From a virus (Duplodnaviria > Heunggongvirae > Uroviricota > Caudoviricetes), in IMG/VR virus record IMGVR_UViG_3300028800_000057: DNA of 64,000 bases. The stretch is one strand, 5' to 3'. The notes under the pieces were generated by a model. That model did no database searches. It was given only the letters and a program-made list of their open reading frames with translations, and was not told where the DNA came from. The position numbers were made by a program, and so were the translations under genes. Numbering within the stretch: position 1 is the first letter of the stretch; each line of letters opens with the position of its first letter. Below are positions 3,168 to 55,721 of the stretch, piece after piece.

Positions 3168-3614
3168 TCACTCATCGTTGTCACAGATATAGCAGGGCCG
3201 AATATGACCATGGAGGCAGAGGACCTGATCTTTCAAGGCATCAAGTTCAGCTTGAACGACTTGGAGCTTAGAGGGGGCCCGCTTCTTTCTATTCTCCTCG
3301 ACGTACCCTCGGCCTAGGTCCCCCTCACAGATCCATGCTGGGTTCTCTTTGACGTGCTGGGTAATCACCGTCTGCTTCGGTGACATCAGCTTGCGGCCGC
3401 AATGGTACTCGAGAAGTACGTACCCGTCGTCCTGAATCTCTAAGACAAGGACGTAGAAGATCTGCTGGAACCGCCCCTTGTACCTGTTGACATAGGCCAA
3501 CAACTCAGGAGGGAGATCCCGTACCCGTAGAGCTACGCCCTTGCGCCAAGACCGTTTCTCTGGGGTGCCGTACTCGAACCAGGACACTTCACTTACCTCT
3601 ACTTCAATACCCAC
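3168..3614 (-). CDS. Hypothetical protein with C-terminal CxxC
   Basis: 148-aa ORF, packed gene run. Confidence 0.65.
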   Translation of the reverse strand: MGIEVEVSEVSWFEYGTPEKRSWRKGVALRVRDLPPELLAYVNRYKGRFQQIFYVLVLEIQDDGYVLLEYHCGRKLMSPKQTVITQHVKENPAWICEGDLGRGYVEENRKKRAPSKLQVVQAELDALKDQVLCLHGHIRPCYICDNDE

Positions 3615-3758
3615 TTACTAAGAACTACTTGGGCTCGAATCTTCATTGATCTAACCCAAGCGGAGATTGTACTCAAGAATGGCAGCACTGTCACCAGATA
3701 GAACGGTAAATCGTGAAACGGGTTTCCGCAAAAGTGCATAATCGGTGTACACCGGTGA

Positions 3759-4031
3759 ATGGACAAGGCACAACTGAAGGTTTTAGCTCGAGTATTGGAC
3801 TTATCGGCCAGTGAGTTCAGCAATCATGGGTGCAATGACTTCAACCTGACCAAGCAAGGGCTGACTGCTGACGAGATTAAGAGCTTCAAGGAAGGATTCC
3901 TGATGTTCATGCAAGAAGATGACAAATGGTACGAGGCATCCGGGAACTCAGTCGAGGACTGGCTCGTCATGCGATACTTGGCCAAGCTAGCCAAAGACGA
4001 GCTTCAGAGTCAACCTATAAATTTACGCTGA
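3759..4031 (+). CDS. Hypothetical protein
   Basis: 90-aa ORF with GGTGTA motif 9 nt upstream of ATG. Confidence 0.7.
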   Translation: MDKAQLKVLARVLDLSASEFSNHGCNDFNLTKQGLTADEIKSFKEGFLMFMQEDDKWYEASGNSVEDWLVMRYLAKLAKDELQSQPINLR

Positions 4032-4221
4032 ACCTCGAAGGCTTCGATGACCGCTCGCATGCAGTCTACCGTGAAGTTGTCCGTGGGGATCTGCATCGAT
4101 TCACCCTTACTTATGCTGATGCACAGGTAGGGCCTCCCGTTTGCGTCACATTGAAATGACGTAGTGCCAGGGCACTTGACAGAATCTCTAATGACTTTGA
4201 GTACTTTAGGGGTTTCAGGCA

Positions 4222-5232
4222 TCACTCTTCTCCGTCATAGTCGCCTTCTTCGGTCGCCTTATTGATGATCCCGGTGAGGATGCCAGCCATATCTTGGTGG
4301 TACCTCAGCCAGTTCTTCCAGGGGCGGTCTTGACCACCCGCGTATGAAGGCTTCCATAGGTTACCCCGACCACGGTACCCGTTCACGAGATCAAACCAGA
4401 CCATCTCGGCTACGCCCGACAGGAACCCAGGTAACTCATTAAGTTGAACCGCTCCTTCGAGTGCCATGAGCCAGTGGGACCCTAACCCGAGGCCGCACTC
4501 ATCTCTAATGCATCGGGATAAGTGGTGGTCCCATCGACGAAGGGTCATAGAAGACGCACCTTGAATCAAGCTCCGAATCGAGTATAGGTCATCCCCATTG
4601 AGCATCGCCTCTGACCTATCATGGACCGTTGTGAGGGTGTCGAGGGAGATTGCCGATTCTAATACCTTCCGGCATTCGACCCAATAGTCGCACAAGAGGC
4701 TCTTCAAGCTATCTAGGGTTGTAGGGAAGTCACCACTCCAAGACTTGAAGGGGCTGACCAGTACCGACTGCCACACGTCCTCCCGGATCATGGCCACCTG
4801 AACTCGCACATTCCGTATCCCAGATGTACGAGGAAGGTCTTCTGGCTTTGAGGCCGTAGGTGCCTCCTTGACGTGCCGTTTCTCCTCTCCGTAGCACCAG
4901 TGCCCGGGAACAAGGAGGCGCTCTTCCCAAGTGGCTTCCCAGAGCTGGTCAAAGTCCATATCCCGAGTCACCGCGATGTCATGCCAATGGTTCTCCCCGA
5001 CACTCAGCTCAAACATGTCCGTATGCAGCCCTTGGACCCAAAGACGCTTGAACACGTCATCCTTGACGTCATCCAACCTTCCGTAATCGTTATAGGTTCC
5101 TTGTACTGGGAATGTTCTGGGCAAGTACTTCGACGAGTAGTCACACGTTGCCTCCCCTAGGGTTGCCCGATGGTGCTCCGACACGAGGATAGCTAGAAGT
5201 CGTTGAGAGTGCACCCGGGGTGGAGCTTCCAC
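4222..5232 (-). CDS. Hypothetical protein
   Basis: 336-aa ORF; stop overlaps start of the 4010-4225 ORF. Confidence 0.75.
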   Translation of the reverse strand: MEAPPRVHSQRLLAILVSEHHRATLGEATCDYSSKYLPRTFPVQGTYNDYGRLDDVKDDVFKRLWVQGLHTDMFELSVGENHWHDIAVTRDMDFDQLWEATWEERLLVPGHWCYGEEKRHVKEAPTASKPEDLPRTSGIRNVRVQVAMIREDVWQSVLVSPFKSWSGDFPTTLDSLKSLLCDYWVECRKVLESAISLDTLTTVHDRSEAMLNGDDLYSIRSLIQGASSMTLRRWDHHLSRCIRDECGLGLGSHWLMALEGAVQLNELPGFLSGVAEMVWFDLVNGYRGRGNLWKPSYAGGQDRPWKNWLRYHQDMAGILTGIINKATEEGDYDGEE

Positions 5233-5909
5233 TTCCTATGAGTACAGACTTGGTCGTAGTGGCGCGTAACTCAAGTGAGATGGCCCTAGCCCAGCAGAAG
5301 CTCATCCTTTGGGTTGAAGCTAGGATTGAAGTCGAGAAGGCGCTACTTGCCGAGGCTGAGGTCAAGCTTGCCAAAGCCAAGGACATGAAGCAGAGAACCA
5401 CCACCTACGCCAACCGCGTTATGGTAGCCCGAGGGAGCGTGCAGTACTACGAGAAGATCAAGTTGGCTCTGCAGGCTGGGTACTGCATTGTCCCAAACTT
5501 CCCCATCGAGCTCATTGCCATTCGTACGAAGAAGACTGAGCCTACTCTGAGGGAGCACACCAATGAGCAGAAGGCAATGATGCTTGCACCCGGCGAGGGT
5601 CGGTACGTGGACCCTATTCCGAAGATGTCCACTCGAGTCGAAACCGAAGGCGAGAAGACCAAGAGGGTTCGCCATGCGGATTACTTCCGAGAGGTTACGT
5701 TCCCGGCGAGCCTAGCTCGTATCGAGATTCTTGAGGACCTCGACCGGGCTCAAAAGCTCAAGCTATTCGATGCCATTGGGATCTTACCCAGTACTCGACG
5801 CAAGCCTGACCCCATGCTGATTGGTCAGATCTTCCACAAGCGCGGACCGTACAGTGTCAAGACTGTCTCGTTCCTGATCGCTTGGTGGATCGATACAGCT
5901 ACCCTGTGA
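5220..5909 (+). CDS. Hypothetical protein with N-terminal coiled coil
   Basis: 229-aa ORF. Confidence 0.75.
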   Translation: MELPLPMSTDLVVVARNSSEMALAQQKLILWVEARIEVEKALLAEAEVKLAKAKDMKQRTTTYANRVMVARGSVQYYEKIKLALQAGYCIVPNFPIELIAIRTKKTEPTLREHTNEQKAMMLAPGEGRYVDPIPKMSTRVETEGEKTKRVRHADYFREVTFPASLARIEILEDLDRAQKLKLFDAIGILPSTRRKPDPMLIGQIFHKRGPYSVKTVSFLIAWWIDTATL

Positions 5910-11510: not shown

Positions 11511-11629
11511 TATGACACCAAGTTCAAGAAGCAACTTGGAAACTATTAAGAAAAGTAGGCGCACCACCGCCTTGGTTACACCCTCATTGAATGTATAGCT
11601 GATCTGGCCTATATGGCGCAGCCCCGGAT

Positions 11630-12016
11630 CTAGATCTTGAACAGGTCTATTACGTTCGGAATGAACCCAGACTGTAGCTCGTCTGCCTCATCCGCGTAAG
11701 CACTGGACACATACACATAACCCACCGGGATGTTAGAGTTTAATCTGTACTCACAGCCCGACTCTAGTGCGATTACCCCTCGCTTTGGTGAAGGCAGTAG
11801 CTTCACGTTACCCTCACCAAACATGATGGCAAAAGTGAGTATCTTGTCTGTATCCGCAGGGTTGACCCAAACACGGAAGATTGGATCAACCCGAGGCAGC
11901 AAGACCGCATACCGGGGCTTTGGCTTAGCCTTGCCAACCACTCGTAGCGAGGGCCGTACAGCTGGTTCTTCAGTGGGGTCCTGGTACTCTACTTGTATCT
12001 TTGCTGGCATGGACAT
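11630..12016 (-). CDS. Hypothetical protein
   Basis: 128-aa ORF. Confidence 0.65.
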   Translation of the reverse strand: MSMPAKIQVEYQDPTEEPAVRPSLRVVGKAKPKPRYAVLLPRVDPIFRVWVNPADTDKILTFAIMFGEGNVKLLPSPKRGVIALESGCEYRLNSNIPVGYVYVSSAYADEADELQSGFIPNVIDLFKI

Positions 12017-14271: not shown

Positions 14272-14631
14272 TCACCATCGAACTGTGCAGGCCTTCATAA
14301 ATAGCCCGCAACAGACAACTCCGGGAACCTGCTTCATACCTACTGGATTGGTCGCCTCGAACTCCGTCGCCGACCAATCGCTCATGCATGCAAAGAAACC
14401 ATGCCCGCGGGTCTGAATATCGGTGAAACCACTGTACCTGAGTGCACGTCGGGTATCAGCCTCGTTTGTCCAGGGCATCATCCAAAGAATGAGAATGATG
14501 ATCGATATTAGGTTGAGGAGGACTTTCATGCCCATCCGGTACACCGATATTGACGAATTATATGGAAAGTAGTTGACTGGTTTTCCAGAGTATGCGAGTA
14601 TCAACGGTGTTGGAGAAGTAGTTGACACCAA
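14272..14631 (-). CDS. Small membrane-anchored protein (start probably ATG 14530)
   Basis: Hydrophobic N-terminus; G.VCCGL.KAC motif. Confidence 0.6.
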   Translation of the reverse strand: MVSTTSPTPLILAYSGKPVNYFPYNSSISVYRMGMKVLLNLISIIILILWMMPWTNEADTRRALRYSGFTDIQTRGHGFFACMSDWSATEFEATNPVGMKQVPGVVCCGLFMKACTVRW

Positions 14632-14651
14632 TCGTCCACCGATTCTAGACT
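14622..14651 (+). promoter_or_regulatory. Sigma70-type promoter for the tracr/cas12 transcript
   Basis: TTGACA (14622)-N18-TAGACT (14646), followed by ATCAGG. Confidence 0.55.
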
Positions 14652-14656
14652 TTTAT

Positions 14657-14760
14657 CAGGGGACCTTCAACCCGTCATGTACGGGGTCCACCCCTAAAGC
14701 GAGGAACAAGTTCACTCGCTAACTGCCGAATCTTCAGTGATACGGCCCCACTTACTCGGT
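14657..14760 (+). ncRNA. Candidate tracrRNA
   Basis: CCTTCAA (14664-70) complements repeat nt 30-36; CCCCACTTACTC (14746-57) complements repeat nt 17-28 (one G:U); several stem-loops lie between them. Confidence 0.7.
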
Positions 14761-14856
14761 CAAGTCTCGATGGACGATTGGTGGCAACAACTCTACAACA
14801 TAGTGGGAATAAGCATAAAGCGAGGGTTACGACCACTCGCTGGAAAGGTAGCCTAC

Positions 14857-16596
14857 GTGGCAACCAAGAAGAAAATAGAGGAGATCAAGAAACCTGAGCT
14901 GACCGACGCTGATAAGGAGTGGGCCAGTGGGGAAGTTTACAAGCTCCTTGTAAAGTACTATCAGACGGCGGATCAACTAGGTCTGAAACCCAAGAAGCAA
15001 CCAAAAGTTTCAGTATACCTGTACTGCGGTTGTCCAATGGCCAAGTATGGAAGAGATACCCTAGGACGAATCCCTCTTGAGATCATCCAAGATCGTAACC
15101 TTGAAGGGGTCGAGGAAGCTCTGTTCAACCTTCCAGGTGCACTAACGCTCCCCATAGTATTCTCGGATCTTCCTAAGGAGGAGGCGGCCACCCTAAAGAA
15201 CCAGTTCTACGGGGTAGCCAGGACGCTCACTATGGGCCTCCAAGCCGTGTACCGACGTCGGTTCCAGGGTCCAATCGAAGGGAACTTGGAGACTGCAGCG
15301 TATCGAACCTGCAATGAAGGGATGGATGAGTATCTAGAAAGTCTAGATGACCCGCTTCTGAGGTTGATGCGGCCATCGTCAAACATAGTAGCGACTGCCA
15401 GTAAGGACTACTCCACCAGGTATGGCAACTGGGAGGCTAGAAATTCACAGGATAAGTCCCCACCATGGCCGAAGGTGACTGGGTTCCCAATCAAAACCGA
15501 CTGCTTTAGTATCGAGATCACTACCCCAGAAGCCTACCGAAAGCGTTGTCCTTCTGCCCCGGCCGAATTACCCAAAGAAATCGTCATGCTTAGTCTCAGA
15601 GTACTAGCTGGGGCGAGCAAGGGTCAACGAGTAGCACCTCTTGTTGCCCGAGTCCAAGTTCGAGGTAGCTCTGACTGGGCAACCCTCAAGAGGGCCATAA
15701 GTGGTACGAAGGGGTACAAGACAACTCAAGGTAGATTGGTTCTTGATGAAGGGAAGTGGGTGTTCAAGCTGGGGTTCAAGAAACCCCGACCCGAACCTTC
15801 AAAGGTCAAGACTGCGCTGGTAGTAATCCCGGCGCTCAATGACTTGGCGATGATTTACTCACATGAAGGTGATTACCTTCGCGGCAAGTACAAGGGGGCT
15901 GGGGAGGTCCTTCCGAAGGGGATAGACTCCTCGGGTTTCATCCACCTCAAGAAAATGTATGACTCCATGAGGTCAGCCCGAGCGCGCCACTTGAACTTCG
16001 TTGGTCGAGGTGCGAGAGGGCATGGTCAGAAGAGATTCCGACTATCACTAGAAGTAGTCGAGGGTAAAGAGACCGATAGGACCAACACCTGGATGGAGCA
16101 GCAGGCCTCCCATCTAGCCAGGTACGCCAATAGTATCGGTGCTATCGTCGGGATCGACGATATGGTTTCAGTCCCTACTGCTCCGGATCGCAAGATAGAA
16201 CGTCTCCTACGACGTTTTCCCTGGTGTACCTTCCGTGACAAGATCGCATGGGCTTGCAAGAAACATGGGGTCCCAACCAAGGTAATCAAACACTCTGGAG
16301 TCAAAGACTGCCCCATGTGCGGCGGGGAGAAGACCCTAGTTGACTCTGCTAACTATGATGGTCGTCCCGAACAGTGGTGCAGGACTGGTTGTGGAGCCGT
16401 AGCCCCAAAGAACCTATTCAGAGCCTGGAGACTGTTCAAGGTTCTTCTGGTCACTGATGCCGATAGCCTGGCGGTAGTTGATCAGGGCTTCAGAAATAAG
16501 GTTGAGGGTCTAATGCATATTCGTACACGAAACAACTCACCTGAAAGTATGAACCTTATGGGTGAACAACCTGATACCGCAGATGCAGCTGAATAG
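14857..16596 (+). CDS. cas12: Cas12f/TnpB-like type V effector with degenerate RuvC (probably nuclease-dead); about 579 aa from GTG 14857, ORF open from 14737
   Basis: KWVF.LGF, GARGHGQKR, IVGIDDM (E to D), FPW..FRDKIAWACKKHGVP, CPMCG/CRTGCG zinc finger; RuvC-I reads ALVVIPAL (no Asp), RuvC-III reads PKNLFRA (D to N); adjacent to array; SD-like GGAAAGG before GTG. Confidence 0.8.
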   Translation: MATKKKIEEIKKPELTDADKEWASGEVYKLLVKYYQTADQLGLKPKKQPKVSVYLYCGCPMAKYGRDTLGRIPLEIIQDRNLEGVEEALFNLPGALTLPIVFSDLPKEEAATLKNQFYGVARTLTMGLQAVYRRRFQGPIEGNLETAAYRTCNEGMDEYLESLDDPLLRLMRPSSNIVATASKDYSTRYGNWEARNSQDKSPPWPKVTGFPIKTDCFSIEITTPEAYRKRCPSAPAELPKEIVMLSLRVLAGASKGQRVAPLVARVQVRGSSDWATLKRAISGTKGYKTTQGRLVLDEGKWVFKLGFKKPRPEPSKVKTALVVIPALNDLAMIYSHEGDYLRGKYKGAGEVLPKGIDSSGFIHLKKMYDSMRSARARHLNFVGRGARGHGQKRFRLSLEVVEGKETDRTNTWMEQQASHLARYANSIGAIVGIDDMVSVPTAPDRKIERLLRRFPWCTFRDKIAWACKKHGVPTKVIKHSGVKDCPMCGGEKTLVDSANYDGRPEQWCRTGCGAVAPKNLFRAWRLFKVLLVTDADSLAVVDQGFRNKVEGLMHIRTRNNSPESMNLMGEQPDTADAAE

Positions 16597-16604
16597 AGGT
16601 TACA

Positions 16605-17315
16605 ATGCCAACCAAGCCCACATTTGTTGATCCTTACAAGGTCACTGGAAGTACTAAACAGATCATAACTAGGCTACTCAAACTCAAGCCGAAGGACTTT
16701 CCAGACGAAGACCAAGCTTTGGACCTAATTCGAAGGCTTAAGGCCGATGCTGATCAGGGTGAGATGCGGCTAATAGCCTATCTTACCGCCTACGAGAAAA
16801 GCGAGCTCTGGAAAAAGTCGGCAGTCCAGTGCCATACCTTCAATGGGTGGTTGAAGTACTATCAAACATCGCTCCCTGATGTGAGCAGGTATAACAACGG
16901 CAAGGAGGCCCTACTCGAGTTTGGGGTTGAAGCTTGTTTGGTCTACAGCATTCGAGCGCTGTCCAAAGTGGTTAGCCTACCAAAAGTGCATCGGCATACC
17001 TTCGTCAAGGAGGAACTTGAACCGGGAGTGGAAACCCGTAGGTTTCCACTAAGTGACGTCACCGTTGGTAGTCGTGTTAAGGAGTACCGTAAGGCTCATG
17101 GTTTAGTCAGTAATGTACCACGAAACCCGAAGAGCGACCTAGCAACTCAACTCGACGAAGCCCGGGAGAGGATCTGCCAGCTGAAAGAAGAAGTCCGAGA
17201 ACTCAAGAAAGAGCGGGACGACCTTAAAAAACGACTGGCCGAATATGACCCCCAAAACCTAATCACTAAGAAACCTGTACCACGGACCAGCAAGGTATCA
17301 AGGAAGGCCGCTTGA
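16605..17315 (+). CDS. Accessory protein co-located with cas12; DUF3102-like N-terminus plus C-terminal coiled coil
   Basis: 8 nt after cas12 stop; YL.AYE...LWK.....TF..WL motif; heptad LDEARERICQLKEEVRELKKERDDL. Confidence 0.7.
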   Translation: MPTKPTFVDPYKVTGSTKQIITRLLKLKPKDFPDEDQALDLIRRLKADADQGEMRLIAYLTAYEKSELWKKSAVQCHTFNGWLKYYQTSLPDVSRYNNGKEALLEFGVEACLVYSIRALSKVVSLPKVHRHTFVKEELEPGVETRRFPLSDVTVGSRVKEYRKAHGLVSNVPRNPKSDLATQLDEARERICQLKEEVRELKKERDDLKKRLAEYDPQNLITKKPVPRTSKVSRKAA

Positions 17316-17540
17316 TTTACGAGGGGTGAGGTGCTTAGCTTCACCCCTTACTCGCTCGCAGGACTATTCTTGAGCGAGTAAGTCCATGATCCTTGACAAA
17401 TTGAGTGCGGAAAGCGAGAAGGGTACTTACCCGTAATGGGGGCTCCTTCCCTAACATACTTGGGAATCAAAAGGTGCTTTTAGTACCCTCTCGCAAGAAG
17501 CATGTGAAGTGGTGGAATTGATTGATTACTGCAGTAACGT

Positions 17541-18834
17541 GTGTTGATCCGATTATGAGTAGGTGGGGTTTGAAGGACTGTCGACGCAGAGAAGCGTGCT
17601 CAACGCATTCGTAGGTGTTGATCCGATTATGAGTAGGTGGGGTTTGAAGGGAGTTGCTCGTCAGTCCCTTCTGGGAGGGCTAGGCGGGGTGTTGATCCGA
17701 TTATGAGTAGGTGGGGTTTGAAGGTGACTCGCTGCTATTCCCGGTCGTCTCGGCACTTGGCGGTGTTGATCCGATTATGAGTAGGTGGGGTTTGAAGGGG
17801 CGAGGACGACAACGACGTTATGTCGTTGATCTCGAGTGTTGATCCGATTATGAGTAGGTGGGGTTTGAAGGTCTGAACTCGGTTGGGACTCGGTCAGGTA
17901 CTTGGTCAGTGTTGATCCGATTATGAGTAGGTGGGGTTTGAAGGCAGGTCATCAGAGTCCAGGTGTTGATCCGATTATGAGTAGGTGGGGTTTGAAGGAA
18001 TCCGACAAGCGGCCTCGCCGTAGACCTCACTTACGGTGTTGATCCGATTATGAGTAGGTGGGGTTTGAAGGTTCGATTTTGAGGCCGTCAATCTTGGCTA
18101 GCGCGTTGTGTTGATCCGATTATGAGTAGGTGGTTCTTGAAGGGATCAAGCCCGATGAAGGTGTTACGCCGGGCATGAACGTGTTGATCCGATTCTGAGT
18201 AGGTGGTGCTTGAAGGGCCGTTAGCTAGCCCCATCGCATAGTGACTAGGGTTGTGTTGATCCGATTATGAGTAGGTGGGGTTTGAAGGGTTATGTCAGCC
18301 ACACGCCAACGTGGCCCGTTCTCGCGTGTTGATCCGATTATGAGTAGGTGGGGTTTGAAGGATTCGGCAAAGGGAGGAAAAGGGGGCCGGATTTCGCGTG
18401 TTGATCCGATTATGAGTAGGTGGGGTTTGAAGGGGCTCACGAGCATTAGGATGTCGGCGCGGGTGGGATTGTGTTGATCCGATTCTGAGTAGGTGGTTCT
18501 TGAAGGTCGCCTCGCTTGGCATAGTCAATTTTCGCCAATAGGTGTTGATTCGATTCTGAGTAGGTGGGGTTTGAAGGCAATCTATCGATTGGAACCATTG
18601 CTAGTCGACTTCTTGTGTTGATCCGATTATGAGTAGGTGGTTCTTGAAGGTTCGTCGGAGAGTTCGAGCACAACGGCCCAAATGCGTGGTTGATCCTATT
18701 CTGAGTAGGTGGTGCTTGAAGGATGCATTGACTACGACCAGCAACCCGCAATAGCCAAGTTCTGACCCCATTATCAGTAGGTGGGGTTTGAAGGGCCAGG
18801 TGTTGATCTGATTCTGAGTAGGTGGTATTGAAGG
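17541..18834 (+). CRISPR. CRISPR array, 19 repeats / 18 spacers; repeat GTGTTGATCCGATTATGAGTAGGTGGGGTTTGAAGG (36 nt)
   Basis: Repeats 1-8 identical; degeneration from 18108 onward places the leader on the cas12 side; spacers 35-38 nt except one of 18 nt and one of 5 nt. Confidence 0.98.
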
Positions 18835-19262
18835 GGGCCCCACATCACCTCGTAGAGCTCGTCAAAGCCTTCCGCCAGGGTTGGGTCCACGAACCTTTGA
18901 GCCGTGATGAGGATGCCCACGCGCGGGACGAATGCCTTCCCTGTCCGTTGAGCATTCCTCTCCATAGACTGCTGAACATTGGATCTGAAATGGTATACGA
19001 TGACCCGTGCGGAGTAGTAACGCGCCAGAGCTACCAACTCAGCCCGTTCTTCAACACTCGGGTTCGTGTTGTCCACTACTAGGGACTTCCCTGCCTCGAG
19101 AGCCTCCCGAATGAGCAGAGTCTGTCTCACAGACTTTGGAGTCCGATTCTTGCGACTACGAGTCATCAAGTCCTTGCTCACAAGGACATAGTCGGGAAAG
19201 AGCACCTTTTGAAAGGTGCTCTTTCCCGATGCCTGCAGGCCAACAAGAATGATGAGATCCAT
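18774..19262 (-). CDS. AAA_33 / polynucleotide-kinase-like P-loop protein
   Basis: LIILVGLQASGKST Walker A; VVDNTN; 3' end overlaps terminal CRISPR repeats. Confidence 0.85.
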   Translation of the reverse strand: MDLIILVGLQASGKSTFQKVLFPDYVLVSKDLMTRSRKNRTPKSVRQTLLIREALEAGKSLVVDNTNPSVEERAELVALARYYSARVIVYHFRSNVQQSMERNAQRTGKAFVPRVGILITAQRFVDPTLAEGFDELYEVMWGPLQYHLLRIRSTPGPSNPTY

Positions 19263-19266
19263 CGAA

Positions 19267-20019
19267 CTACTTGAGATTCTGCAGTATTTGAGTCACAAGA
19301 TCAACATATTCGTCCCCATAGGGTAGATTCCGGTCGATGTAGATCTTCCGTCTTTGAGCAATACTGGATGTCTTGGTCTTGGGGTTGAATCCAGTTTTCT
19401 CGAAACCATGCCAATAGAGCCCGGTCCCACGCTTCTGCCATAGAGGAACGTTGTTGAAGTTGATCCCGTTCTTGTGCAGTATTTCGTTCTTGGTAGAGAA
19501 GGTGGCCCCTTCGAGCCCCTCCGTCGCCTGCTTGGCGGTATGCCCGGATCTCCTCATTGTCCAGTAGCACCAGGAGTTGATACAGCACCGGGAAGCGTCC
19601 AGCTGCCTCCAACGGAAGTAGTCCAGCACATTGGATGTCAACGGCCCAACCCATAACCGACTGTCGAAGTGAGCCGCCTGACCTAGTTGAATCGAGAAGG
19701 TCGAGGAAGCTATCCCTGCAGAGACCGACACCAGCTTCTCCACCTCGCGGCCAAATAGATCCGTATCGCGAGGCAATAGAACAGAAATCTCGTCACTCTC
19801 CGTGAACGCATACAACCCTCCAAGCTCGACCAAGAGAATCGCCGCTGTCTCGACCATAGACTCGTGAAACTTCACGTCAAATGGGTGATCCATCCCACGA
19901 GTCAGCTTCGTAAAGCTCCGCCCATCAACGCGGATGATCGTGTAAGTATCGGGGAGAACCTCCAATGAGTGGTAGTACTCAAGCCGGCGCATCCTCGCTT
20001 CTAGGGTGTCGCTTTTCAT
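19267..20019 (-). CDS. thg1: tRNA(His) guanylyltransferase Thg1-like protein
   Basis: RVDGRSFTKLT, ESDEISVL, FDSR, YF.WRQ.DA.R..IN, FN.VP.WQKRG motifs. Confidence 0.92.
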   Translation of the reverse strand: MKSDTLEARMRRLEYYHSLEVLPDTYTIIRVDGRSFTKLTRGMDHPFDVKFHESMVETAAILLVELGGLYAFTESDEISVLLPRDTDLFGREVEKLVSVSAGIASSTFSIQLGQAAHFDSRLWVGPLTSNVLDYFRWRQLDASRCCINSWCYWTMRRSGHTAKQATEGLEGATFSTKNEILHKNGINFNNVPLWQKRGTGLYWHGFEKTGFNPKTKTSSIAQRRKIYIDRNLPYGDEYVDLVTQILQNLK

Positions 20020-51038: not shown

Positions 51039-52526
51039 ATGTCTGCTGATCTGATTCAGAGAGTAGGGCTTTGCCTCAAAAGGGTTGACTTTTGAATAAG
51101 TTCTATTACGCTGGAATCAGGTCTCATTCCTTCGACCAAAAGCGAGGGTTACGACCACTCGCTAAAGCCTCCGGTTAGGAGGGTCTCATACTTTTGAGGC
51201 AAAGAGAGAGTAGCGTCAAGATTCATCGAGGCATCAGCGCCTATCTCCGTAAAGGAAGTTGACGGAAGGATTGAAGTCTCTGGGCCTTATGACAAGATGA
51301 AGGACTTGATCCCTTACCTACGTGGGAAATTCGAGTATCGCGGTCATGACCACACTTGGTGGGAATCCAAAGCGAAAATGACCCCTCTGAAGATTAAGAA
51401 TCTTCAGAAGAAGGTTGATGCGGTCAATGGGAAATTTGGCCCCAACCCTGTGAAGGTGGAAGAGCCAGCGGATGCTAAGGCGGTCAGGATTGAGGAAGCC
51501 AAAAAGCTGCTCAGTAAAGCGATCCATATACGGGTTACTGGATTGATCTTTAGTCCCATCGGGGTCGATGGTGCTCAATTGACAGGAGCTCTTACTGATC
51601 TGAGGGTGTTGATTAACATGTCTGGTGGGGATTATGGCCCAGAGTTCTCGAAGTTCTATGTGCAGAATATCAAACCAGTAGAGTTTAGTAAGCTCCTGGA
51701 CGCGATTGAGGACCAGGGTAGGCTTGTGGCCAAGTCCCTTGCTGATCTGTCTAGTATAATTCCGCGCAAGTTCCCGAGCTTGCAGATTAACGTGGGGACC
51801 AATAACGGGAGCTACTTGTTCGTAGTCTCTGGAAAGACCTATGACTTCAAGGATGATATCAAAAAGCTGGTACCGGTAACATTCAATGGTCAAGGGAGTT
51901 TCTGGTGGGCTCCAGTCCATCAGGTTAAGGAAGCTCAAGTAAAGAAGCTAATTGAGTATCTCGAGAGTGAAGAGCGGGCGAGAGCTGAGAAATGGAAGGC
52001 TGAAAAGGTGGAGAGGACACCTACCGAGAAAGCGAAGAGGCCTAATCGTAGAGGGGATCATTGCTTAAACTGCGGGGCGTGGGTAGATGCTGGTGATGGT
52101 TACTTAGTAGACCATTGGGACAATGATGAGGACGAGCTAGTCTATAAGGTGGTTCACTCTGATCCTAGTGTCTGCGCTGAAGTCAAAGAGGCGGCCAGAA
52201 TACGCCGTGAAAAGGCTAATACGAAGCGTGAGGCTCAGGGAAACTTGTATAAGCTTTGTGCAAAGTCAGAGTACTATGTACAAGGTACAGGACATCGACC
52301 CCCAGGTGAGCAGATCTGGATTGACAAGACTGCACTCGGATATGGGGGTGGGACGTGGGTAGTTATTGAACCCGGTGATAACTACTTCTGGTATGTCAAG
52401 AATAACGGGGCTGACGGGGACGATTGGTCCAACAACAATGTCTCGACAGGTGGTGCTGGGGCCATTGGATATCGACTTCCGATGACAGAAGAAGCGCGCG
52501 TTCTCATTGACGTGGCAAAGGAGTAG
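51039..52526 (+). CDS. Gene split by a 147-bp insertion; restored product about 446 aa (MSADLIQRVASRFIEAS...), downstream part annotated from 51297
   Basis: Removing 51067-51213 fuses ATG 51039 in frame with the 51297-52526 ORF. Confidence 0.75.
51067..51204. mobile_element. 138-bp MITE-like insertion
   Basis: 14-bp TIRs CTTTGCCTCAAAAG (51069-82) / CTTTTGAGGCAAAG (51191-204); 9-bp direct repeat AGAGAGTAG (51058-66, 51205-13). Confidence 0.85.
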
Positions 52527-55252: not shown

Positions 55253-55392
55253 TTGATTTTGTAAGTTGGGTGAGTTATGATCTCATTGAATCAGGATACA
55301 TTCTTGATTTATTGGTTTTGTTCTTTCGACCAAAAGCGAGGATTATGATCACTCGCTAATGTCCCAGGTTAGGGAGTCCTTTTAGGGCAAAG
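55253..55392 (+). ncRNA. Promoter plus tracr-like structured RNA homologous to 51085-51204
   Basis: TTGATT-N17-TATGAT, GAATCAGG, TTCGACCAAAAGCGAGG-attatgatc-ACTCGCTAA, GGTTAGG loop, GGCAAAGAG. Confidence 0.6.
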
Positions 55393-55394
55393 AG

Positions 55395-55721
55395 GTGTCT
55401 GACTATCTTGAAACCAAGCATGAGTTGAGGGAACTCAAGAATACCTTCGTAGCAGTCACGACTCGAGTAGAAGCGGTGGATGCCTACTCACATGAGGTCG
55501 CTGAGCGCAGTCATGACCTCAAGGAGACGGTGGCTCAGCTCTCGGGGTACCTGGCTGGGATACTTCCGAAGGCTGGTGTGAAGGTCCCAGGGGCTGAGCC
55601 AGGGGCTATCAGCATGGAGATTGTCTCTGACCCACTTCCCATGAACGAGAAGCGTCAACGCCCGGTGAACGTCCACACCCGGGTGCCGGCACCCAAGCCC
55701 AATGACAGTTCAGGTCGATAG
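55395..55721 (+). CDS. Hypothetical coiled-coil protein
   Basis: 108-aa ORF followed by a terminator. Confidence 0.65.
   Translation: MSDYLETKHELRELKNTFVAVTTRVEAVDAYSHEVAERSHDLKETVAQLSGYLAGILPKAGVKVPGAEPGAISMEIVSDPLPMNEKRQRPVNVHTRVPAPKPNDSSGR

Follow-up and report, generated by a model that had tools for sequence, protein, structure and literature searches.

One short and one long repeat:anti-repeat duplex joining the crRNA to a tracrRNA are known from Cas12f1, Cas12b and Cas12k, and Cas12f1 is a tracrRNA-dependent class. TnpB and IscB work with omega-RNAs, single RNAs in which the guide is covalently attached to the scaffold, and the IscB scaffold lies upstream of its open reading frame. 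In the dual guide of Cas12f1, a long repeat/anti-repeat stem with a mismatch is accompanied by a short 5- to 7-bp stem between the spacer-proximal end of the repeat and an internal part of the tracrRNA (PMC11246509), and Cas12k forms two such duplexes, at crRNA positions -1 to -5 and -6 to -14 (bioRxiv 10.1101/2021.07.07.451486). For the dCas12f-sigmaE and CRISPR-linked dCas12f systems of Bacteroidota, single chimeric guides and no tracrRNA-like species were found; the putative guide RNAs were detected by covariance in intergenic regions near CRISPR loci, and these effectors come from bacteria, are truncated at the C terminus and are encoded in linkage with rpoE or HTH genes (PMC13472631). Cas12r of the Thermus Lalka phages is RuvC-active and uses crRNA alone, with no tracrRNA detected by small-RNA sequencing (bioRxiv 10.64898/2026.04.20.719267).

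The locus described here lies in a stretch of 64,000 nucleotides (the window) and consists, in this order on the plus strand, of a leader RNA, an effector gene, an open reading frame for an accessory protein and a CRISPR array. The features downstream of the leader are as follows.

14857-16596, plus strand: effector gene, 579 amino acids, GTG start; Cas12f-like, with the acidic residues of RuvC-I and RuvC-III missing
16605-17315, plus strand: accessory gene, 236 amino acids; helical N-terminal domain and coiled coil
17316-17540, plus strand: array-leader region; a terminator-like conserved nested hairpin, followed by TTGACA (17393-98; invariant) and the long-range stem GCGAGA...TCTCGC, which is also conserved
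17541-18834, plus strand: CRISPR array, 19 repeats of 36 nt with spacers mostly of 35-39 nt

The locus and its genes were found only in rhizosphere DNA metagenomes. A search of 5.8 billion protein clusters returned nine relatives of the effector with 50-86% identity, giving a close family of 10 proteins; the relatives' contigs are up to 473 kb long, one of them being a viral contig of IMG/VR. More distant relatives (L015, E 1e-135; L016, E 2e-60; L019, E 7.5e-59) came from a profile search of 1.84 billion representatives, and the effector-family profile matched 185 cluster representatives at E values up to 0.001. The same profile found no relative on the contigs of 185,579 species genomes. Since PHROGs revealed no hallmark phage genes among ten large open reading frames of the window, the phage assignment rests on the IMG/VR relative, on the 145- to 473-kb contigs of the close relatives and on the terminase/DnaB context of L019. 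Apparently, this is a phage-borne system of a large soil phage that combines a dead-Cas12f-like effector, an array and a scaffold RNA. The genes cas1, cas2, cas4 and tns are absent near the window locus, and no tnsB, tnsC or tniQ was found among the called genes of 12 related loci or the ten open reading frames flanking the window locus. Recurrent neighbours of the CRISPR locus in several related phages, at most a few kilobases away, are genes for a Thg1-like tRNA-His guanylyltransferase and for an AAA_33/polynucleotide-kinase-like protein (window 18774-20019; L002:8652-8888 and 11517-11740; L003:10421-10876; L006:798-1262 and 3421-4167); in the window, the 3' end of the kinase gene overlaps the last array repeats on the opposite strand.

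By its predicted fold, the effector is Cas12f-like. The 16 best Foldseek matches of its AlphaFold model (pLDDT 69) are all Cas12f or dCas12f structures, led by AsCas12f (8j1j, E 8.8e-15), and the family profile matched the PDB entry of a Cas12f1 (9i8y, E 7.5e-9). Curated HMMs gave only TnpB/Cas12f signals below their cut-offs. The protein has the miniature TnpB-like build that characterizes type V-F, with WED/REC, RuvC and zinc-finger (TNB) domains, the finger being of the CxxC...C..C type. The RuvC D-E-D triad is incomplete: an invariant acidic residue is lacking both in the RuvC-I strand (VVIPALN) and at the RuvC-III position behind the zinc finger (APK.LFRAW), and only D434 aligns with the RuvC-II glutamate in the ten-member alignment. 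Read from these alignments, the effector is probably nuclease-dead. The accessory gene directly follows the effector gene in every locus. Its product shows 29-64% identity across loci, with invariant Y..AYE.S..W and F..WL motifs and a C-terminal coiled coil; a family search assigned it to no family and gave only weak DUF3102/ParB-HTH-like leads.

The start of the effector gene at GTG 14857 was set by 10 homologues, and five loci carry an in-frame stop 9 nt upstream. Starts at GTG 14737 and ATG 14770 were rejected on the basis of the homologue alignment and upstream in-frame stops. In the distant relatives, gene callers had run the effector open reading frame over the tracrRNA (L016:5001-5140, L019:5001-5142) and, in L008, over the 3' arm of its terminal stem (5001-5045), so that the deposited protein N termini are probably wrong. 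A gene-free gap of 300-420 nt precedes the effector gene in all nine distinct close homologues, and these gaps can be aligned with each other.

Between loci, conservation of the CRISPR repeat is confined to its 3' 20 nt, the part that pairs with the leader RNA as described below. The repeat of ShCAST ends in a similar G-rich motif, ...GGUGGG..UUGAA.G. Among the arrays of the window, L001-L003 and L008, the 5' 16 nt of the repeat are completely different, and none of the 106 spacers of these five arrays is shared. The window array includes one spacer of only 18 nt (17945-17962), and its final two repeats are 5 nt apart. Searches of the spacers against 50,697 phage records gave no match, three spacers had no exact match in IMG/VR, and comparison with the window and the related loci yielded no meaningful match. 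The leader, its TTGACA box and the degenerate distal repeats assign plus polarity to the array; region 17316-17540 has the appearance of a structured leader of the array.

Upstream of the effector gene we predict, with a probability of about 85%, a structured tracrRNA of ~176 nt (14617-14792) that serves as guide scaffold of this phage-borne, Cas12f-like and probably nuclease-dead effector. Its approximate ends were placed by covariation and promoter-like boxes. The leader comprises the following features.

14573-14601, plus strand: candidate promoter, TTGACT (14573-78), 17 nt, GAGTAT (14596-601); its TTGAC box is invariant in nine leaders
14617-14650, plus strand: 5' arm of P1, half of a ~32-bp terminal stem (RNAalifold, nine loci)
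14658-14695, plus strand: P2 hairpin, outer helix 14658-62/14691-95, inner helix 14671-76/14680-85, with AR1 in the 5' internal loop
14664-14670, plus strand: AR1, short anti-repeat CCUUCAA, exact complement of repeat nt 30-36 (UUGAAGG), which adjoin the spacer
14698-14720, plus strand: P3 hairpin, AGCGAGG-loop-CACUCGCU; the most conserved element, with covarying inner pairs
14725-14746, plus strand: P4 hairpin, GCCG-A-AUC ... GAU-A-CGGC; compensatory changes at pairs 125:173 and 129:169
14746-14757, plus strand: AR2, long anti-repeat CCCCACUUACUC, which pairs with repeat nt 17-28 (GAGUAGGUGGGG)
14759-14792, plus strand: 3' arm of P1, partner of 14617-14650 (RNAalifold, nine loci)
14793-14856, plus strand: rest of the 5' leader, with a degenerate pseudo-repeat remnant (~14801-14814), a second P3 hairpin (14818-41) and a Shine-Dalgarno-like GGAAAGG (14842-48)

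An earlier note on this DNA had proposed a bipartite tracrRNA-type RNA 5' of a cas12-like gene, a proposal that is strongly supported by conservation and covariation in 12 loci and by the literature. Its pairing claims proved exact upon re-checking: CCTTCAA (14664-70) is the perfect complement of the 3' heptamer of the repeat, and CCCCACTTACTC (14746-57) pairs with GAGTAGGTGGGG over 12 bp with one G:U. Both repeat segments, TTGAAGG and GTAGGTGG, are present in 19 of 19 repeat copies. The likeness that it drew to the short and long duplexes of Cas12f and Cas12k agrees with the published structures (PMC11246509; 10.1101/2021.07.07.451486). The two anti-repeats (7 bp and 12 bp) lie on the same strand as the array with which they pair, and AR2 is non-coding because the effector starts at GTG 14857. 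The isolated duplex energies were -20.8 and -7.2 kcal/mol. RNAcofold of tracrRNA and crRNA did not return the expected duplexes, and pairing inside a multiloop closed by P1 is a pseudoknot in that formalism.

Could such complementarity arise by chance in an ordinary untranslated region? The 7-mer alone would be weak evidence, since 57 of 3000 shuffled versions of the 300-nt stretch preceding the gene contained CCTTCAA. A duplex of at least 12 bp arose in 12 shuffles, and both matches together in only one; moreover, the 12-mer pattern, with G:U allowed, has a single occurrence outside the array in the 64 kb. Both matches are also conserved, accessible and covarying in 12 loci and occur in four letter combinations. 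These comparative data contradict a chance origin, the probability of which we regard as negligible.

Within the close family, AR1 forms 7 of 7 bp in all six loci with arrays and AR2 10-12 of 12 bp, with a mismatch at position 5 or 6 of the AR2 duplex in L001-L003. AR2 shows G:C to G:U to A:U transitions at two positions, where C changes to U in the tracrRNA opposite a G-to-A change in the repeat. The spacer-proximal repeat end and AR1 read UUGAAGG/CCUUCAA in the window and L001-L003 and CUGAAGG/CCUUCAG in L008 and L010; AR1 of L006 and L007 is CCUUCGG. Overall, there are four letter combinations of the short duplex, the other two, GUGAAGG/UCUUCAC and AGUGGAG/CUCCACU, coming from relatives matched only at a profile E of ~1e-59. 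L019 uses letters that differ from those of the window: CUCCACU is complementary to AGUGGAG (nt 30-36) in 7 of 7 bp, and an 11-bp duplex joins CCUCUUGAUCC to GGAUCGAGAGG (repeat nt 18-28). In L016, UCUUCAC faces GUGAAGG, and a bulged 9-bp AR2 duplex is formed by CCU-CCACGU with ACGUGG(U)AGG. The AR2-like segment of L015 is CCACCUAUCU. Independent compensatory repeat/anti-repeat events within the close family are few (~3). The distant relatives carry most weight, and no other argument for the bipartite model is as strong as the match of the L016 and L019 anti-repeats to their own divergent repeats at equivalent positions.

Region 17316-17540, downstream of the accessory gene and upstream of the array, occupies the usual position of a Cas12f or Cas12k tracrRNA, and CTTCACCCCTTACTC within it shows partial complementarity to the repeat (5 + 4 bp with a 2-nt gap). 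It is very improbable, however, that the true anti-repeat RNA lies there. CTTCACCCCTTACTC is the 3' arm of the terminator-like hairpin (GGGGTGA...TCACCCC) and would hence be paired, it is missing in L008 and L010, and it fails to track the repeat differences of L002 and L003, for which reasons it was rejected as a gapped anti-repeat. The core covariance model also found no match in 17316-17540.

Comparison of nine loci further supports the scaffold fold proposed for the tracrRNA. Of the 59 pairs in the RNAalifold consensus, 30 show changes in both partners, and 94.7% of the cells are paired; sliding the 3' partners by 1-3 columns lowered these values to 31-42% paired and at most six double-change pairs. 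None of 500 column shuffles reached the observed percentage paired or double-change count, and the window RNA has a folding z of -6.0. In nine homologue RNAs, the probability of being unpaired is 0.76-0.96 for AR1 and 0.80-0.90 for AR2, versus ~65% of each RNA being paired; AR2 is predicted to lie unpaired in the multiloop between P4 and the 3' arm of P1. The heptamer does lie in an internal loop of a hairpin, as the bulge postulated in the earlier note implied, but covariation supports AGGGG (14658-62)/CCCCU (14691-95) as the outer helix of P2, with G:C to A:U changes in L006-L008, rather than the GGACC/GGTCC helix assumed there. The P4 loop of L004 contains a 31-nt insertion.

The P1-P2-P3-P4 layout is retained 5' of the effector gene in L015, L016 and L019 (z = -6.5 to -7.6; L016, -6.5; L019, -7.6), with L015 encoding a compact version. 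In these three loci, the inner helix of P2 is missing and AR1 is found in the hairpin loop. A covariance model, built on the tracrRNA core and not on the full-length RNA, matched L016 and L019 best where the effector gene had been called to begin. In Rfam, no family passed its gathering threshold anywhere in the window, and the matches in 14500-14900 were noise (E >=1); a DNA pattern scan for the tracrRNA core in viral and metagenome contigs returned the L001 lineage only. Covarying complementarity, a conserved scaffold structure and a position within the CRISPR-cas locus, all marks of a tracrRNA, are thus combined in this RNA.

The RNA had originally been delimited to 14657-14760, with the long anti-repeat at its 3' end and a start just after TTGACA-N18-TAGACT. 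These limits capture the inner core only. The flanks 14617-14650 and 14759-14792 belong to the RNA because 20 of the 32 pairs of P1 have undergone compensatory double changes; AR2 is consequently internal, followed by the covarying 3' arm of P1. The boxes do exist at 14622-14651, and a promoter scan scored them 10/12; a TAnnnT-like hexamer, a T-run and AUCAGG are roughly conserved in nine loci. On these grounds, a short tracrRNA from ~14657 to ~14760 with merely incidental complementarity in its flanks could be considered, but we think it unlikely. The double changes include positions in both hexamers, and the -35 box reads TTGACA, TTGTCA, TTGTCG, TTGGCA or CTGGCA while its partner in the 3' arm changes along with it, so that the boxes cannot be taken as the only start site. 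Furthermore, the 25 G:U cells in P1 indicate selection on RNA, a short form would leave 14759-14792 without a partner, and P1 is kept in L019, L016 and L015.

As TTGACA-N18-TAGACT lies inside the 5' arm of P1, at least some transcripts must start further upstream, and 14573-14601 would be the promoter of a joint tracrRNA/effector transcript. Its -10 hexamer is weak in the window and nearer to consensus in L006 and L007 (TATAGA, TATAAG). In L019, a clean, consensus-like TTGATT-N17-TAAGAT promoter precedes the terminal stem. The boxes in the P1 arm precede AUCAGG, and a like arrangement of promoter-like box, AUCAGG and P3 hairpin recurs in two paralogous leaders of the window (~51085-51121 and 55254-55296, the latter immediately preceded by a terminator-like hairpin); an additional start inside the RNA, near 14657, is therefore possible, and the short form could coexist with the long one.

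We found no terminator between the RNA and the effector gene. With the gene starting at GTG 14857, this makes the scaffold RNA the 5' leader part of the effector transcript, so that a discrete small RNA would need processing. The same observation could be taken to mean that the RNA is only a cis-acting leader, for instance an autoregulatory protein-binding site, whose complementarity to the repeat serves regulation. In L008 and L010, the 3' arm of P1 ends ~25 nt ahead of the start codon, a second P3 hairpin precedes the effector gene in the window and in L002, and four loci carry a pseudo-repeat that can pair with AR1 and AR2 just 5' of the Shine-Dalgarno sequence. A purely cis-acting role nevertheless appears improbable, even more so than the short form: the anti-repeats covary with array repeats that lie 2.7 kb downstream, behind a terminator-like hairpin and their own TTGACA, and covariation with separately placed repeats requires pairing in trans with array transcripts. 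The RNA might act in trans while still attached to the mRNA, which is compatible with the tracrRNA reading and no true rival to it.

The pseudo-repeats (GAGTGGGTG, 1-4 nt, GAAGG) are located at L001:1539-1556, L004:4973-4988, L006:4972-4988 and L007:4971-4988, and the element is degenerate in the window. They pair over 8-9 bp with AR2 and 5-6 bp with AR1 of their own locus and track the AR1 variant, CGAAGG occurring with CCUUCG and TGAAGG with CCUUCA. The 'spacer' of such a pseudo-repeat would be the ribosome-binding site of the effector gene itself.

The P3 hairpin (AAGCGAGG-N8-CACTCGCT) occurs in four copies in the window versus 0.05 expected by chance, all on the plus strand, in leaders and with covarying inner pairs (14697-14720, 14818-14841, 51140-51163 and 55334-55357). 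Like the tracrRNA, the leaders 51116-51199 and 55290-55388 contain AUCAGG, a P4-like hairpin and a small P2-like one; the core model gives them 34 and 27 bits. The genes that follow (51297-52526 and 55395-55721) are unrelated and were rejected as Cas12 or accessory paralogues. P3 may be a shared protein-binding leader motif.

For the tracrRNA, we propose the following course of events. The RNA would be transcribed on the plus strand from a promoter 5' of 14617, as leader of the effector/accessory operon, and might be released by cleavage at or near the ~32-bp P1, for which RNase III is the obvious candidate. The array would be transcribed on the same strand, with the last 20 nt of each repeat serving as crRNA handle; handle positions -1 to -7 would pair with AR1 and, after one free nucleotide, -9 to -20 with AR2. 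The effector would then bind the composite RNA and presumably use the spacer for DNA binding, not cutting.

Compared with the known systems, the effector fold is closest to the V-F1 enzymes AsCas12f, Un1Cas12f1 and SpCas12f1, whose tracrRNAs likewise carry the short anti-repeat 5' of the long one. In contrast to these, the long anti-repeat is here not at the 3' end but internal, followed by the 34-nt 3' arm of P1; the RNA lies upstream in the effector leader, in the same orientation, instead of in the interval from effector to array; it shows no sequence similarity to theirs and no Rfam family; and the effector lacks the RuvC-I and RuvC-III acidic residues. With Cas12k it shares two anti-repeat:repeat duplexes and, apparently, a naturally nuclease-dead effector. 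However, no tnsB, tnsC or tniQ accompanies it in the window or the related loci, its context is a phage and not a Tn7-like element, and Cas12k is not its closest relative, no Cas12k structure being among the 50 best Foldseek matches of the effector model.

Like dCas12f-sigmaE, the present effector is a probably nuclease-dead Cas12f relative with an accessory partner, but its locus has a full array and a scaffold RNA encoded separately, and its coiled-coil accessory protein is unrelated. Cas12r is likewise a miniature type V effector of about this size, encoded by a phage together with an array but no adaptation genes; identity of the two was rejected because Cas12r is a tracr-less, active nuclease. 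As with the omega-RNAs of TnpB and IscB, a large structured scaffold RNA is co-encoded with a TnpB-family protein, whereas here separate genes encode the scaffold and the guides, which base pairing brings together. The features that set this RNA apart from those of known Cas12f and Cas12k are thus its leader position, the P1 stem, the internal long anti-repeat and the apparently dead effector in a phage. A literature search found no publications on this dead-Cas12f tracrRNA family: the kind of RNA is known, whereas the family, the leader position and the long closing stem are, as far as we found, undescribed.

Solitary half-repeats, consisting of the 20-nt handle part only, were found in intergenic positions directly 5' of plus-strand genes in L008 (2694-2715, 3803-3824 and 4695-4716) and L004 (1886-1908 and 4699-4721), one copy in L004 lying between promoter and tracrRNA. 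In L010, the entire 'array' is one repeat (5451-5486), 39 nt ahead of the start codon of the next gene. These elements 5' of genes in three phages, the pseudo-repeats in four, whose 'spacer' would be the ribosome-binding site and start codon of the effector itself, and the recurring AUCAGG-P3 leaders raise the speculative idea, which we rate as doubtful, that the scaffold RNA is the hub of a phage gene-regulation circuit in which mRNA leaders are read as guides or decoys. If so, the complex of dead Cas12f and scaffold would capture leaders, providing autoregulation and control of a small regulon, and would be a natural counterpart of engineered 'reprogrammed tracrRNAs'.

The predicted tracrRNA supplies the missing guide component of an undescribed family of phage-borne, apparently dead Cas12f-like effectors, the reconstitution of which would be impossible without the scaffold RNA. 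The pairing rules, i.e., 7 bp next to the spacer, one free nucleotide and 11-12 bp, with both anti-repeats open in a closed four-helix scaffold, would permit single-guide design; because of the internal position of the long anti-repeat, the fusion would have to be circularly permuted or P1-truncated. The placement of a scaffold in the effector's own leader, closed by ~32 bp, is unusual for type V and suggests that scaffold and effector production are coupled and possibly autoregulated. If the effector is the compact, naturally dead and RNA-guided DNA binder predicted here, with a dedicated partner protein, it would be of interest as a tool and for phage biology, where it may silence host or rival elements.
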